Positions 4,047-10,875 of a stretch of DNA of 13,311 bases are shown piece by piece. Made by a program: the position numbers and the translations under genes. Origin of the DNA: Nitrosopumilaceae archaeon. GTDB lineage: Archaea > Thermoproteota > Nitrososphaeria > Nitrososphaerales > Nitrosopumilaceae. Numbering within the stretch: the first letter of the stretch is position 1; every line of letters starts with the position of its first letter. The stretch is taken from positions 1 through 13,311 of the forward strand of contig JBQTHX010000012.1 in assembly GCA_052389415.1 (NCBI GenBank). Direction: 5' to 3'. A model generated the notes under the pieces. It saw nothing but the letters and a program-made list of their open reading frames with translations, ran no database searches and was not told where the DNA came from.

Positions 4047-4055
4047 ATATTTAAG
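4047..4055 (-). promoter_or_regulatory. Archaeal TATA box of the Lrp/AsnC gene
   Basis: CTTAAATAT on the minus strand begins 29 nt before the ATG at 4026, consistent with a leaderless transcript. Confidence 0.6.
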
Positions 4056-5077: not shown

Positions 5078-5185
5078 AAATTCGAAAAATATTCTAATTA
5101 TATGATATTATTTTTATTACATTTACCGATGTTCTGTAAAAAATTGGCATGAAATAACTAATTAATGAAAAATCTCTAGCTAGCT

Positions 5186-5194
5186 CTTAAATAT
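5186..5194 (+). promoter_or_regulatory. TATA box of a putative small transcript
   Basis: CTTAAATAT is identical to the box upstream of the Lrp gene. Predicted start about 5213-5217; ATG at 5217. Confidence 0.55.
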
Positions 5195-5214
5195 CTGAAA
5201 GAGCATAATACATA

Positions 5215-5350
5215 CAATGACATTTGTTGTCAGAGCAATGGATTGAACTAGCGTGGCCCCGCAGAAATCAATAACGTGAATGGCGCAATGGCGCTGATTT
5301 TTGGGTGGTAATCTCCCTTTGTTCTGCAAGAGGGTCACGCCATTATTTTA
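5215..5350 (+). ncRNA. Candidate structured RNA or regulatory leader of unknown family
   Basis: 5251-5340 is 48/90 G+C within AT-rich intergenic DNA. Stems: GCGTGGCCC/GGGTCACGC (5251-59/5332-40), GCAGAA/TTCTGC (5261-66/5322-27), ATCA/TGAT, GCGC-AATG-GCGC. G-U pairs favour the + strand. Flanked by a TATA box and a T-tract (5346-5349). Confidence 0.6.
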
Positions 5351-5353
5351 AAA
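5346..5353 (+). promoter_or_regulatory. TATA-like box for the SOD gene (may also terminate the upstream RNA)
   Basis: TTTTAAAA lies 24-31 nt upstream of the ATG at 5377. Confidence 0.5.
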
Positions 5354-5376
5354 CGGAATAGTGTAAACAATTTCCT

Positions 5377-6000
5377 ATGGGAAGATATGAAATTCCGCCA
5401 CTAAATTACACGTATGATTCACTAGAACCATATATTGATGCAAAAACGATGGAGATTCACCATTCAAAAATTCATCCTGCGTACGCTAACGGCATAAACA
5501 AGACACTTGAACGGATAAACGCACTCCAACACAAAAATTACATCACTTCAATTCTCTCTGATCTTACCTTGATCCCAGAAAATGTGAGAAAAGAAATAAA
5601 TTTTTTTGGTGGAGGATTTGATAATCACAGGCTATTCTGGGAAAGCATTAAACCTCACGGAGGAGGTGAACCAGGTGGAAATCTTGCTGATGAAATAAAA
5701 ATATATTTTAACAGTTTCAAAGAATTCAAAGAAAAGTTTTCCTATGCAAGTATGTCTATTCAGGGAAGTGGCTGGTCCTGGCTAGTTTACAATCAAACAT
5801 ATTCCAGACTAGAGATAAAGGCAATGCCTGATCAGACTAGCCCGTGGACTCTCCGATTAATCCCTCTCTTGGGTTTGGATCTATGGGAACATGCATATTA
5901 TTTGAAATACCAAAACAACCGCGAAGAATATGTTAAAGCATGGTGGAATATAATAAACTGGACAGAGATCGAAGAGAGATTTTTACGGGTCTCATCATGA
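5377..6000 (+). CDS. sod: Fe/Mn-family superoxide dismutase with Mn-type signature residues
   Basis: LEPYID..TMEIHH, NH.LFW, GSGWSWL and DLWEHAYY motifs; all four metal ligands are present. Confidence 0.95.
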   Translation: MGRYEIPPLNYTYDSLEPYIDAKTMEIHHSKIHPAYANGINKTLERINALQHKNYITSILSDLTLIPENVRKEINFFGGGFDNHRLFWESIKPHGGGEPGGNLADEIKIYFNSFKEFKEKFSYASMSIQGSGWSWLVYNQTYSRLEIKAMPDQTSPWTLRLIPLLGLDLWEHAYYLKYQNNREEYVKAWWNIINWTEIEERFLRVSS

Positions 6001-7042: not shown

Positions 7043-7738
7043 CTACTTTCTTAATTCGTTGTCTACCGCATCTGCCATTGAGTCAAGATCATCAAAACTT
7101 CCAAATTTTTGGTATGTTAATCTTTCCAAAGTTTGCAGGACACTTTTTACTGCACGATATTGTGGTATTTGTGGATCGTTTATCTCTCCATACAATCCTA
7201 TGCCCTGAATGCCATTTGATTTTGCAAGGCCCAAAATCAGACCATTAAATCCTGTTATCAATGACTGTTGAGGAGTTATGTCTACACCAAGATTGCTTAG
7301 TTGACGAGTTAGCTCAGGTGAGGTAGTTGTCACAAAACTGCGCGGACTCTTTCCCAAAATTTTGTTTGTGTGAAAGGCACCAAGCGTATAGATTAACTTG
7401 ACCTCATATTTTTTGGCAACATCGATTACATCTTGGCAAAGTTTGTAGAGATCCTCGTGATTTTCTGGTTGACCTCTTCCACCTCCAAACACCAAAACAT
7501 CCTTTCCGTATCGATACTCCCACTTTTCTTGAAAATACTCGATATGACCTCCCTTGTCAACCACGTAAGGAGGAAAAGAAGATGTTACATAACGAAACAG
7601 GCGTGTGTGTAGATATTCATTGATGACATCTATTGCTGTGTTGCCAACATTTCCCATGTCTTGCATGGCAGCTATCGCTATGGGTTTTTTCAAATTTGGT
7701 TCTTCTACCTGGACAAATTCCATATCTGCATTTTGCAT
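7043..7738 (-). CDS. PAC2-family proteasome assembly chaperone-like protein
   Basis: DMGNVG, GQP, IYTLGAF, ITGFNGLILG.A...GI.GIGLYGE motifs. The start may be ATG 7723 (MEFVQ). Confidence 0.88.
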   Translation of the reverse strand: MQNADMEFVQVEEPNLKKPIAIAAMQDMGNVGNTAIDVINEYLHTRLFRYVTSSFPPYVVDKGGHIEYFQEKWEYRYGKDVLVFGGGRGQPENHEDLYKLCQDVIDVAKKYEVKLIYTLGAFHTNKILGKSPRSFVTTTSPELTRQLSNLGVDITPQQSLITGFNGLILGLAKSNGIQGIGLYGEINDPQIPQYRAVKSVLQTLERLTYQKFGSFDDLDSMADAVDNELRK

Positions 7739-7769: not shown

Positions 7770-9509
7770 TCATTTTCGTATTACTTGATACACTGAACCA
7801 TACTCTTGTGTGTCTGCCCCTGTTACCAATCTGTAATTGTACAAATCAAAGGATTTTACCATTTCATACAATGCTTCATCTATGACCAAACCATTTGGTG
7901 GTGAGAATCGGTTTATCTTGGCGCACCTGTTTACAGTAGAACCAAAAATGTCATCTATTGCTGAAGTGGCAATTTTTGCGACTCGTACCGTACCATATGT
8001 TGCACTGATTCTATAATCAAATGGCGGTAATCCTTCCTGTTGCATCTTTTTGCTTATGTGTGAATTAAGCTCACCAATTTTCAAACAGCCTTCTAATGCA
8101 TTCTTTATGACATTGATATCTTTTGTGTTAGTCCTTGGAAAATAAAACAGTAATGCATCTCCAATATTTTTTACTACAATGCCACCATTATCACCAATCC
8201 ATATCGCCATGGAATTAAGGAAGATACTATAGAATTTGCTAGACTGTAAATCAGTCATATTGGCGGTAAGCTTGGTAGATCCTATGACATCCAAAAAACA
8301 AACAAAATAATTTTCACTCTGCTCCGAAAATTGTAACAACACGTCCTGTTGCTGTTTTATAATGTCTTCTCTTTGTCTAATTGCAATCAATGATTCCTGT
8401 ATCTTTTTTGCCATGGCATCAAAAGAGATAGAAAGCTGGCCGATTTCGTCACTCCTAATTATGTTAGTCCTTGTCTCAAAGTTGCCTTTAGCAATCTCAT
8501 TTGCAGCATCACGTAATTTTATTAACGGTCCAGAGAGCCGCTTTGATAAGAAAAAGGCAAGTATTACCATTACGACTATTATTATAACCCCGGCAAAGAA
8601 AATCTTATTTTGAAGATTTTGTAGCGGTTCAAATGTTTCTGACTCGTCTTTTTCTGCAAGTAATACAAATCCCAGATCCTTTGCACAATAAGAATAGCTG
8701 TAGATTGGTACTCCTCTATAATCAATATACAAACCACCGATACTATCGCCTGATTCAAAACATGTTGATACGGGCAAAGTGTTTACTATTTGATTAAACA
8801 CTGCATCTTTTACAAACCTTGATTCTGAGATCATCAGATGATCCTTATTTACGAGGTAAACTTCACCTGTATTACCTAATCCACTTCTGGTCAACAAAAT
8901 ATTGTCAAGTTCTACTGTGCTTGTTGTTGCAATTAAGACCCCTATCGGCTTTTTCCCTTCTGTTCCAAAAATCGGAGTAATAATAACCATGATTCGTTCT
9001 CCGTAAGATGTTGGTTCGAGTTCAACAAATGGCTGAGCCAGTCCGCGAACAAACCTAGGGTCTCCTGTAAAGTCTGTTTTTTCCATTCTTCCCAGAGAAA
9101 AATAAACTATACCTTTATCACCAATAATTTTTACATCAGCTAGACCAATTGAATACCCAACCAGTTCACGGAAAGATCTTATCTCGTTAAAAAAATCTTC
9201 CCGCTTTTCATTAACTCTTAAATCAAAATCAGGATCATCTGAGATGTTGTTTAACTCATCAACTATGTTATGTACATTGGGGGCGGTAGCAAGAATTTGA
9301 GCATCTTTGATTCTAGTATAAAATAATGTTCGAACAGATTCGCCTCTTATCTTTGATTCACTTAGGAGTTGGTTTTCAACCCCCTCTTTGAGCGTAATTT
9401 GGGCAAAATTAAAAATTAAAACTGTGACAGTGACAAGAGTAATCGCTGAAACTATCATAACTAGTAAAATTAGCTTTTTATCTAAACTAAATGATAGCCG
9501 TTTTGGCAA
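7770..9509 (-). CDS. Membrane-bound class III adenylate/guanylate cyclase: TM - Cache-like sensor - TM - HAMP - cyclase
   Basis: Two TM helices flank a ~265 aa extracytoplasmic domain (GNTGEVYLVNKD, YIDYRGVPI). HAMP motif PLIKLRDAANEIAKG...DEIGQLSISFDAM. Cyclase motifs FLDVIGST, KNIGDA and DIFGSTVNRCAK. TTG start. Confidence 0.92.
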   Translation of the reverse strand: MPKRLSFSLDKKLILLVMIVSAITLVTVTVLIFNFAQITLKEGVENQLLSESKIRGESVRTLFYTRIKDAQILATAPNVHNIVDELNNISDDPDFDLRVNEKREDFFNEIRSFRELVGYSIGLADVKIIGDKGIVYFSLGRMEKTDFTGDPRFVRGLAQPFVELEPTSYGERIMVIITPIFGTEGKKPIGVLIATTSTVELDNILLTRSGLGNTGEVYLVNKDHLMISESRFVKDAVFNQIVNTLPVSTCFESGDSIGGLYIDYRGVPIYSYSYCAKDLGFVLLAEKDESETFEPLQNLQNKIFFAGVIIIVVMVILAFFLSKRLSGPLIKLRDAANEIAKGNFETRTNIIRSDEIGQLSISFDAMAKKIQESLIAIRQREDIIKQQQDVLLQFSEQSENYFVCFLDVIGSTKLTANMTDLQSSKFYSIFLNSMAIWIGDNGGIVVKNIGDALLFYFPRTNTKDINVIKNALEGCLKIGELNSHISKKMQQEGLPPFDYRISATYGTVRVAKIATSAIDDIFGSTVNRCAKINRFSPPNGLVIDEALYEMVKSFDLYNYRLVTGADTQEYGSVYQVIRK

Positions 9510-9651: not shown

Positions 9652-10875
9652 TTGGCAATAGAATCTCACTTTATTCAAACAATAATTGGTGTTGGGATTT
9701 TGCTTTTTGCTGCCAAGCTTATGGCAGAACTCTTTCATAGATTAAAGCTACCGATTGTTTTGGGGGAACTTCTAGCTGGCATGATTGTGGGTCCATTTGC
9801 TTTTGGCTCGTTGTTTATGTTTGAGGGTCAACCTTTGCTTAAGATAGACGGCGAACTAAGAATCCTTGGAGAAATAGGGGCAATTGTAATCCTTTTCATA
9901 GCAGGACTTGAGGTTACACCAAAAGAATTCTTGCGCGGAGGTAAGGCCTCGTTTGTGGTAGCAACATTTGGAGTTATTTTGCCGTTCTTTGTTGGATTTT
10001 TTGTTTTTGAGATGTTTGGATTTGGAGCATATCAATCAATGCTTATTGCTACAGCTCTTACTGCAACAAGTATTGCAGTTTCAGTGCAAGTTTTACGTGA
10101 ATTTGGAAAACTCCAGACTCCCGAAGCTCGCCTGATTATTGGAGCTGCAATCATAGATGACATTCTTGCTATCGCAGTTTTATCAGTAGTTAGTTCACTT
10201 GGCACTGCAACTGGTGATATTTCTCAGATAGATCCTATTCAGATAATTATTGTAATAGTCCAAGTCCTTGGTTTCTTCGCAATGCTATTGATTGGTTCTT
10301 TAGTAATAATCCCAAGGATTGTTGCAAGAAAAATATGGAAGGCAGAGGGAAGTGTTGAAGCGATAGCGACAGCGCTTTTTTTTGGAGCAGCAGCGCTGGC
10401 AGGGATTATAGGACTATCCCCGATTGTTGGTGCCTTTGCTGTAGGAATGGCGTTGTCTTCAAGCAAGGTTTTTGAAAAAATTGAACAATACATAAGCAAA
10501 CTAGGTATAATTTTTGCACCCTTATTTTTTGCGTTTATTGGTGCTCAGGTTGACTTTCGAGGAGTTAATCTTGAGGTCTTGATGCTAAGTGGCTTGATTA
10601 TCGTTATTGCAGTATCCACGAAATTCTTTGGATGTGGGTTGCCTGCCATGCTATTTCTCAAGGATAAAAGAAAATCAATGCAAGTGGGAATAGGAATGAT
10701 TTCAAGAGGGGAAGTGGGATTAATTATTGCAGGAGTTGGTGCAGCTTCAGGAGTTCTCACATCTAATGTATATTCAACTATTGTGATAATGGTTGCAGCA
10801 ACTACAATAATAACTCCTCTTTGGTTAAAATCAAGTTATAAAAAAGAAGGTGCACATAAACCTCAAACGATCTAA
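9652..10875 (+). CDS. Cation:proton antiporter, CPA2 (NapA/Kef-type) family
   Basis: About 12-13 TM helices; PIVLGELLAG, LFIAGLE, ATSIA, AAIIDD and MISRGEVGL motifs. No C-terminal KTN/RCK domain. TTG start. Confidence 0.93.
   Translation: MAIESHFIQTIIGVGILLFAAKLMAELFHRLKLPIVLGELLAGMIVGPFAFGSLFMFEGQPLLKIDGELRILGEIGAIVILFIAGLEVTPKEFLRGGKASFVVATFGVILPFFVGFFVFEMFGFGAYQSMLIATALTATSIAVSVQVLREFGKLQTPEARLIIGAAIIDDILAIAVLSVVSSLGTATGDISQIDPIQIIIVIVQVLGFFAMLLIGSLVIIPRIVARKIWKAEGSVEAIATALFFGAAALAGIIGLSPIVGAFAVGMALSSSKVFEKIEQYISKLGIIFAPLFFAFIGAQVDFRGVNLEVLMLSGLIIVIAVSTKFFGCGLPAMLFLKDKRKSMQVGIGMISRGEVGLIIAGVGAASGVLTSNVYSTIVIMVAATTIITPLWLKSSYKKEGAHKPQTI

Follow-up and report, generated by a model that had tools for sequence, protein, structure and literature searches.

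A predicted small RNA gene family of the Nitrosopumilaceae, with a conserved fold and a putative leaderless nine-codon frame at its foot

The Nitrosopumilaceae are among the most abundant archaea of the ocean and drive nitrification there, and to our knowledge very few RNA regulators have been recognized in them. The accessible text of a 2017 survey counts one known riboswitch instance in all Thaumarchaeota (PMC5473149). The stretch of DNA analyzed here, 13,311 nucleotides from a genome of this family (G000) and hereafter called the window, raises the question of whether a GC-rich segment lying 36 nt upstream of the sod gene, on the same strand, encodes an RNA; whether that RNA belongs to sod; and what it might do. 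The original prediction, made from the sequence of the window, left two possibilities standing—a stand-alone small RNA of about 130 nt, or a cis-regulatory leader of sod, possibly responsive to metal or oxidative stress. The results below favor the first. Positions 5217-5349 (+) appear to hold a small RNA gene about 130 nt long and transcribed on its own, a member of an uncatalogued family that is restricted, in the genomes searched, to the Nitrosopumilaceae (Table 1).

Table 1. Coordinates of the predicted RNA gene, its parts and related copies. Positions are those of the window unless a contig or locus is named.
Feature	Position	Strand	Basis or remark
TATA box of the RNA gene, TTAAATAT	5187..5194	+	TTAAATA-like box 28-30 nt before the start codon in 95/99 copies
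Whole predicted RNA, ~133 nt	5217..5349	+	Whole-unit fold; ends inferred from promoter spacing and T-tract
Predicted leaderless mini-ORF, 9 codons, MTFVVRAMD	5217..5246	+	ATG 5217-5219, stop TGA 5244-5246
P0, hairpin within the mini-ORF, TGACA/TGTCA	5218..5232	+	Stem sequences differ between groups
P1, 5' strand (9-bp closing stem)	5251..5259	+	Minimum-free-energy fold; 7/9 P1 pairs changed on both sides, 100 copies
P1b, 5' strand, GCAGAA (C5260 bulged)	5261..5266	+	6/6 pairs changed on both sides
P3 hairpin, sequence variable, pairing conserved	5282..5295	+	5/5 pairs changed on both sides
P4 hairpin	5303..5317	+	5/5 pairs changed on both sides
P4 loop, G-N-A-A-U, near-invariant	5308-5312	+	Conservation seen in alignments
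P1b, 3' strand, TTCTGC, then unpaired AAGA 5328-5331	5322..5327	+	Fold and pair counts
P1, 3' strand, then conserved unpaired C 5341	5332..5340	+	Fold, alignment and pair counts
T-rich tail, likely oligo-T terminator	5343..5349	+	Terminator role inferred from sequence and spacing
Second copy in G000	C14:86305-86396 (locus L064 1501-1592)	-	37.7 bits, model R1
Weak third match in G000	C8:1613-1701 (locus L065)	+	20.7 bits with R1, 14.6 bits with R2
Third subfamily	Loci L278-L297, L093, L096, L099, L270, L271		Other genomes

The segment stands out from the AT-rich DNA around it, as had been observed at the outset: G+C reaches 0.49 in 90-nt windows against 0.22-0.27 just upstream, and is 0.52 over the covariance-model match at 5248-5343. 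Each element of the fold first proposed is present in the sequence, at the positions given for it—a 9-bp closing stem (P1), an asymmetric loop in which a single unpaired C stands opposite AAGA, a 6-bp stem (P1b), and two inner hairpins, GGCGC/AATG/GCGCT (P3) and GGGTG/GTAAT/CTCCC (P4)—and the minimum-free-energy fold is this same structure. Taken singly, the plus strand of the element folds no more stably than chance allows (z = -1.58; 20 of 200 shuffles are as stable), and the minus strand gives z = -2.3; the case for a real structure therefore depends on relatives. As a side observation, P3 is followed in same-genus copies by ATTTTT (5281-5302 in the window), a combination that a simple scan reads as terminator-like and that could mark a premature stop inside the RNA; the T-run is missing from most other genera.

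Relatives are plentiful within the family. BLAST recovers full-length orthologs, 83-90% identical, in nine of ten genomes of the same genus, and in two other genera it gives weak matches; with a covariance model built from 12 sequences (R1), 134 of 151 Nitrosopumilaceae genomes, representing 25 of 27 genera, show full-length matches, at one to three or more copies per genome. A class-wide sample gave matches in 79 of 80 genomes of the family and in none of 70 genomes from 11 sister families. A broader model (R2) recovers two genomes missed by R1, finds no match in the small-genome genus g5, and likewise none in two sister families searched separately (0 of 41 and 0 of 11 genomes). These tallies include three unpublished genomes (G108, G122 and G123), without which the counts shift by at most three. 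The carriers include Nitrosopumilus, Nitrosarchaeum and Nitrosomaritimum, and one of them, Candidatus Nitrosopumilus salarius BD31, is in culture.

The fold is conserved among these copies, and it covaries. Across 100 copies, 97.0% of the cells at pairing positions are paired, as against 86.4% after shuffling (none of 500 shuffles reaches the observed value) and 38-54% in controls with slid partners; the alignment was fitted to the model and so favors the structure, and the compensatory changes are nevertheless plain in its raw rows. Changes on both sides are seen at 23 of the 25 pairs, a count whose independence is overstated, since the copies are phylogenetically related. The homologs and covariation on which the original prediction had proposed to judge the structure are thus both in hand. 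Its argument for the plus strand, drawn from G-U pairs in one sequence, also extends to the family: the copies hold 131 G-U cells against 19 A-C cells, which identifies the folded strand as plus. Beyond what pairing needs, the primary sequence of P1/P1b and of the P4 loop is itself strongly conserved.

The source genome holds two clear covariance-model matches and one weak match. The second clear copy, on contig C14, carries the frame MQKDAKSTA followed by TAA, and is flanked by a short-chain dehydrogenase gene, divergent from it, and by a small membrane-protein gene, convergent to it; this type of locus, seen in 27 of the 99 sampled loci, looks like the ancestral one. The weak third match stands at a contig end, with no recognizable TATA box or ATG upstream, and may be a degenerate copy or a chance match. 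Genome G034 has a weak second match (locus L112 2168-2261, minus strand; 24.7 bits) with a 13-codon frame; a clear copy lies some 570 nt away in the same orientation, and the weak one may represent a diverged tandem duplicate. A pattern search based on the architecture of the unit, described below, further exposed a third subfamily that R1 detects weakly. It has the same promoter, nine-codon frame, stop codon, P1 and T-tract, and a different interior, in which a hairpin with a 13-nt loop takes the place of P1b and P4; it is often found between the genes for chorismate synthase and EPSP synthase.

The RNA family is absent from catalogs. At gathering thresholds, Rfam 15 has no family that matches the window; under permissive settings, 5080-5400 gave SNORD45 as its sole match, at a chance-level E of 9.8, and twenty other copies returned two chance-level matches (E = 1.5 and E = 4.7). 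A faint resemblance to the manganese-sensing yybP-ykoY riboswitch had been raised in the original prediction and set aside there, rightly as it proves: RF00080 has no match at E<=10 in 5080-5400 and none in the twenty other copies, and a yybP-ykoY element would require a regulated Mn-related gene downstream, where the genes next to this RNA are not conserved. The same scans uphold the earlier judgment that the element matches no tRNA, 5S, SRP, RNase P or known ribozyme family. A tRNA or tmRNA is further rejected by ARAGORN, which reports no genes in the window, and by inner hairpin loops of 4-5 nt, rather than 7 nt. An interspersed, MITE-like repeat, which the original prediction had named as the outcome that many dispersed copies would imply, can be set aside because BLAST finds a single copy in the element's own genome and viral contigs lack it.

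Several further candidates were considered and rejected. A Y RNA of the Ro ribonucleoprotein would call for a TROVE protein, and none matching PF05731 turned up in G000, a genome 94% complete (control searches gave matches in 2 of 14 named genomes). Box C/D and H/ACA guides find no snoRNA family above chance in the Rfam scans, and by eye the C/AAGA loop lacks tandem G-A pairs and no ACA follows the stem. K-turn, hammerhead, H/ACA, intron-bearing tRNA and SRP Alu-like domain were each missing their defining motif on informal inspection by eye. The idea that P4 mimics a Shine-Dalgarno site was dropped, its variable loop base arguing against it; the 16S gene is missing from the source assembly. 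The openly accessible literature that was searched contains no description of the RNA family, nor of a leaderless nine-codon frame that links translation and folding in Nitrosopumilaceae; the accessible text of a Red Sea metatranscriptome study mentions thaumarchaeal contigs and not this family (PMC5069720).

The unit is also bracketed as a gene of its own would be. The original prediction had pointed to a TATA box identical to that of the Lrp gene, and TTAAATAT does occur twice in the window, once ahead of the RNA and once at 4047-4054 (-), 28 nt before the ATG of a gene with an Lrp/AsnC domain. The T of the box ahead of the RNA lies at 5187 and an ATG at 5217, and in the source genome TATA-like hexamers peak 29-30 nt before the ATG of ORFs of at least 150 aa. 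This spacing is the signature of leaderless mRNAs in the genome, and on this basis transcription is predicted to start with the AUG. In the tRNA genes of the same genome the TATA box stands 28-33 nt ahead of the mature 5' end, where an ATG is generally lacking, from which it follows that the ATG is neither a requirement nor a by-product of the promoter. (Many of these tRNA genes have a TATA-like box at 28-33 nt, a spacing that by itself points to tRNA precursors with almost no 5' leader.) At the other end, P1 is followed across copies by a conserved unpaired C and then by the T-rich tail recognized from the beginning as bracketing the element; in 74 of 100 copies, the 22 nt downstream of P1 include a run of at least four T. 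Promoter spacing and T-tract thus predict both ends of the transcript, and the proposed stand-alone RNA of about 130 nt, with its own promoter-like TATA box and T-tract, is supported.

Whether the RNA serves sod is a matter that synteny can address. The arrangement seen in the window, with sod directly downstream, is kept in nine of nine same-genus orthologs; in the family-wide sample it is found at one of 99 loci, which is the window itself, so that homologs stay beside sod within the genus and not elsewhere in the sample. The downstream gene is convergent at 85 of the 99 loci and on the same strand at 14, an orientation that makes the unit an independent gene and not a leader. Of the two possibilities first proposed, then, the stand-alone RNA stands and the sod leader does not. 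A leader or riboswitch sensing metal or oxidative stress would account for the 36-nt spacing, the shared strand and the constancy of the arrangement in the genus, and the presence of msrA, fur, hsp20, a thermosome gene or a hemerythrin gene near other copies would be in keeping with it. Against this, no riboswitch family matches, and the T-tract and a TATA-like box stand between the element and sod; with the synteny, which largely refutes it, this reading is hardly credible. That TATA-like box, TTTTAAAA at 5346-5353, overlaps the T-tract of the RNA and lies 31 nt before the sod ATG (5377), a spacing which suggests that sod is probably a leaderless mRNA whose promoter overlaps the terminator of the RNA. 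Transcription of the RNA could, in that case, interfere with the sod promoter. The neighborhoods as a whole—sod, msrA, fur, the thermosome gene, hsp20 and the hemerythrin gene near some copies, and corA also among the neighbors—give only a hint of a possible stress theme.

At 52 of 99 loci the convergent neighbor belongs to one protein family, here called protein X, whose members are 140-190 aa long and combine a membrane helix at the N-terminus with a beta-sandwich domain (for example C14:85882-86301 (+) in G000); its stop codon overlaps the T-tract of the RNA, and at about 55 of the 85 convergent loci the neighboring ORF ends within 14 nt of the RNA core. Protein X falls in no Pfam family. 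Its AlphaFold model has a pLDDT of 85, and a Foldseek search against the PDB returned weak jelly-roll and beta-sandwich matches, none at E<=0.001, with no functional clue. The four genomes of the small-genome genus g5, in which the family search found no copy of the RNA, lack protein X as well; in genome G017 its gene does not adjoin the RNA. Elsewhere in the window, a gene for a 579-aa sensor cyclase with dCache, HAMP and adenylate/guanylate cyclase domains (7770-9509, minus strand) adjoins a PAC2-family gene (7043-7738, -) and a Na+/H+ exchanger gene (9652-10875, +).

The most distinctive regularity of the unit lies ahead of its fold. A short open reading frame that ends 3-5 nt before P1 is found in 99 of the 100 copies, with nine codons in 88 copies and eight in another eight. 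It starts with ATG in 95 copies, GTG in three and TTG in one, and all three stop codons are in use (TAA 66, TAG 17, TGA 16); the identity of the stop flips among close orthologs, and a stop is kept. Of 99 copies, none has a stop there in one of the other two frames, and 8 have one in the other. (Taken by itself, the lack of TGG at the stop position is not significant.) When family genomes were searched with a pattern composed of TATA box, ATG, eight codons, T-R-R and the beginning of P1, 70 of 80 matched; 70 genomes outside the family gave no match, and the reversed pattern never matched. The conserved mini-ORF, predicted to be leaderless, together with the multi-copy nature of the RNA and its family-wide distribution, was not part of the original prediction and is new here.

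What is conserved across groups is frame length, start, stop and the distance from stop to stem, and the peptide sequence varies. The 99 frames encode 67 different peptides, which by our reading fall into about 17 distinct groups with no motif common to them, and no amino acid is enriched. By the same reading, substitutions within the frame track a 5' hairpin, P0, and not third codon positions, which suggests that the peptide itself is probably not under selection. It is conceivable that the locus is simply a micropeptide gene, its nine-residue peptide being the product and the fold a 3' UTR stabilizer or terminator, and the joint conservation of start, frame length and stop is what such a gene would present. 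But the diversity of the peptides, the tracking of the hairpin by in-frame conservation, and a downstream RNA far more conserved than the frame make this reading very improbable.

P0 itself is a consistent feature: 77 of 85 distinct leaders fold with z < -1 (mean z -2.4), and in most copies the hairpin begins 0-4 nt after the first base, pairing the AUG itself in some. Its position relative to P1 varies, at 0-19 nt. The leader is 33-35 nt long in 75 of the 85 distinct leaders, 30 nt in six and 31-32 nt in one. A leader of tightly held length around a drifting hairpin fits a constraint that is counted in codons rather than in helix geometry.

These regularities bear most directly on a purely non-coding interpretation, according to which the unit produces a stable small RNA, or the RNA of an RNP, that acts through P1/P1b, the P4 loop and the A-rich junction; ribosomes would never read its 5' AUG or the U-R-R triplet ahead of P1, which would belong to the RNA itself or to its promoter, and P0 would be an end-protecting hairpin. 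This interpretation draws support from several observations: the conservation of P1/P1b and P4 loop sequence beyond pairing needs, the hairpin within 0-4 nt of the predicted 5' end, the lack of peptide conservation, and the stand-alone locus. It leaves unexplained the ATG at the start of 95 of 100 copies, given that tRNA genes with the same promoter spacing generally have none. Nor does it account for two further regularities: all but one of 100 copies have an in-frame stop 3-5 nt ahead of P1, where the other two frames have one in 0 and 8 of 99 copies, respectively, and leader lengths cluster at 30 and 33-35 nt while the hairpin drifts. We consider it somewhat unlikely.

To the reading we prefer—a stand-alone RNA in which translation of the leader gates the conserved domain—we would give an even chance. 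The order of elements suggests how such gating might work. A strong TATA box would place the start codon at the first base of the transcript, making it leaderless; nine codons (rarely eight), which can also fold as P0, run to a stop codon; P1 and P1b, 3-5 nt past the stop, form a long, interrupted helix that closes a three-way junction bearing the P3 and P4 hairpins, and the presumed T-rich terminator follows. Ribosomes would initiate at the 5' AUG and, on terminating, have their leading edge within P1. The footprint of a ribosome reaches several bases past the stop codon, and for that reason a terminating ribosome would have to open P1, so that translation would transiently open the closing helix. 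Folding of the domain, and hence its activity, stability or 3'-end formation, would then report the level of leaderless translation in the cell. The comparisons above show the fold and its conservation, the layout of the unit and its separateness from sod; a transcript start at the AUG, translation of the nine codons and coupling of that translation to the fold are all predicted here from sequence and spacing. Points that weigh against the gated reading are these: P0 lies close to the AUG, pairs with it in some copies, and could hinder leaderless initiation; the peptide is probably not selected; and a simple model of ribosome versus stem gives the conserved interior, the P4 loop and the A-rich junction no role.

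A more specific version of the gated reading is also possible, though we regard it as doubtful. The leaderless start, the nine codons and the stop might exist only to drive a ribosome into the closing helix, in which case the unit would be a stand-alone, translation-sensing archaeal riboregulator through which marine ammonia oxidizers gauge how actively they translate leaderless RNA, for instance in the face of oxidative, heat or energy stress. What is read could be how the RNA is folded, or else transcription that runs on into sod or, antisense, into the convergent membrane-protein gene.

Read-through is central to another alternative, in which the unit is a ribosome-gated terminator, an archaeal analog of leader-peptide attenuation: P1 and the T-tract would terminate transcription, a ribosome parked at the stop codon would keep P1 open, and read-through would run in the sense direction into sod in this genus and, mostly elsewhere, antisense into the convergent gene. 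The stop codon 3-5 nt before P1 and the frequent T-run after it (74 of 100 copies) are what such a device would need, and the downstream contexts are suggestive as well, both in the close approach of neighboring ORFs to the core (about 55 of 85 convergent loci) with the same convergent gene family at 52 of 99 loci, and in the constant position of sod in the nine same-genus orthologs. Yet no conserved alternative (antiterminator) pairing is visible by eye in the consensus or in single folds, the frame has no enriched amino acid, and the conserved three-way junction would be superfluous. Moreover, sod has its own TATA-like box at leaderless spacing, and archaeal transcription termination is known to need only oligo-T. 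We therefore judge the gated terminator unlikely, and return to translational gating of the RNA domain as the preferred reading.

The locus is of interest beyond the choice among these readings. A family-wide, multi-copy and strongly covarying RNA with a strict architecture and no catalog entry is a ready target for further work; its nine-codon frame, predicted to be leaderless and ending just ahead of the fold, suggests that translation and RNA folding are linked; and since cultured strains carry the RNA, the proposal is directly testable. If true, a translation-sensing RNA would represent a new kind of archaeal riboregulator.

Comparison with known systems places these features in context. 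The likeness to yybP-ykoY (RF00080) is confined to short sequence motifs, the architecture being different and no regulated gene conserved. Dual-function small RNAs such as SgrS/SgrT, RNAIII/hld and SR1/SR1P have a peptide that is conserved and functional; this family, like them, joins a short frame to a conserved structured part in one small transcript, but in it conservation of the frame is limited to length and boundaries. tmRNA is a stable RNA in which a frame of about ten codons, with its stop, accompanies a structured domain closed by a long helix. The resemblance of the present unit to it—a frame of about that length, ending in a stop and joined to a domain closed by a long helix—is loose, because here the frame lies at the 5' end with its own AUG and there are no tRNA-like arms with 7-nt loops. 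The family has no defining feature in common with either dual-function small RNAs or tmRNA.

Closer parallels are found among attenuators. In bacterial leader-peptide attenuators such as trpL, pheL and ermCL, a very short 5' frame has its stop at the foot of a stem. The RNA described here likewise combines a short putative 5' frame, a stop at the stem foot and a U-rich tract thereafter, and a ribosome at the stop would interfere with the stem. It differs in being archaeal and putatively leaderless, with no enrichment for a sensed amino acid, no same-strand downstream gene at 85 of 99 loci, no conserved alternative pairing found, and a stem that encloses a conserved three-way junction. Leaderless short frames are known from mycobacteria, as the accessible texts on polycysteine short-ORF attenuators (bioRxiv 10.1101/834739) and on leaderless small ORFs (PMC4633059) describe; to judge from the same texts, these frames head operons and are rich in the sensed codon, whereas the unit here stands alone and its codon content is variable. 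In both, the frame would run from the first base of the transcript, and translation rather than its product would be what matters. Overall, the RNA family may be said to work, if our preferred reading holds, most like these two groups, the bacterial leader-peptide attenuators and the mycobacterial leaderless short-ORF attenuators.
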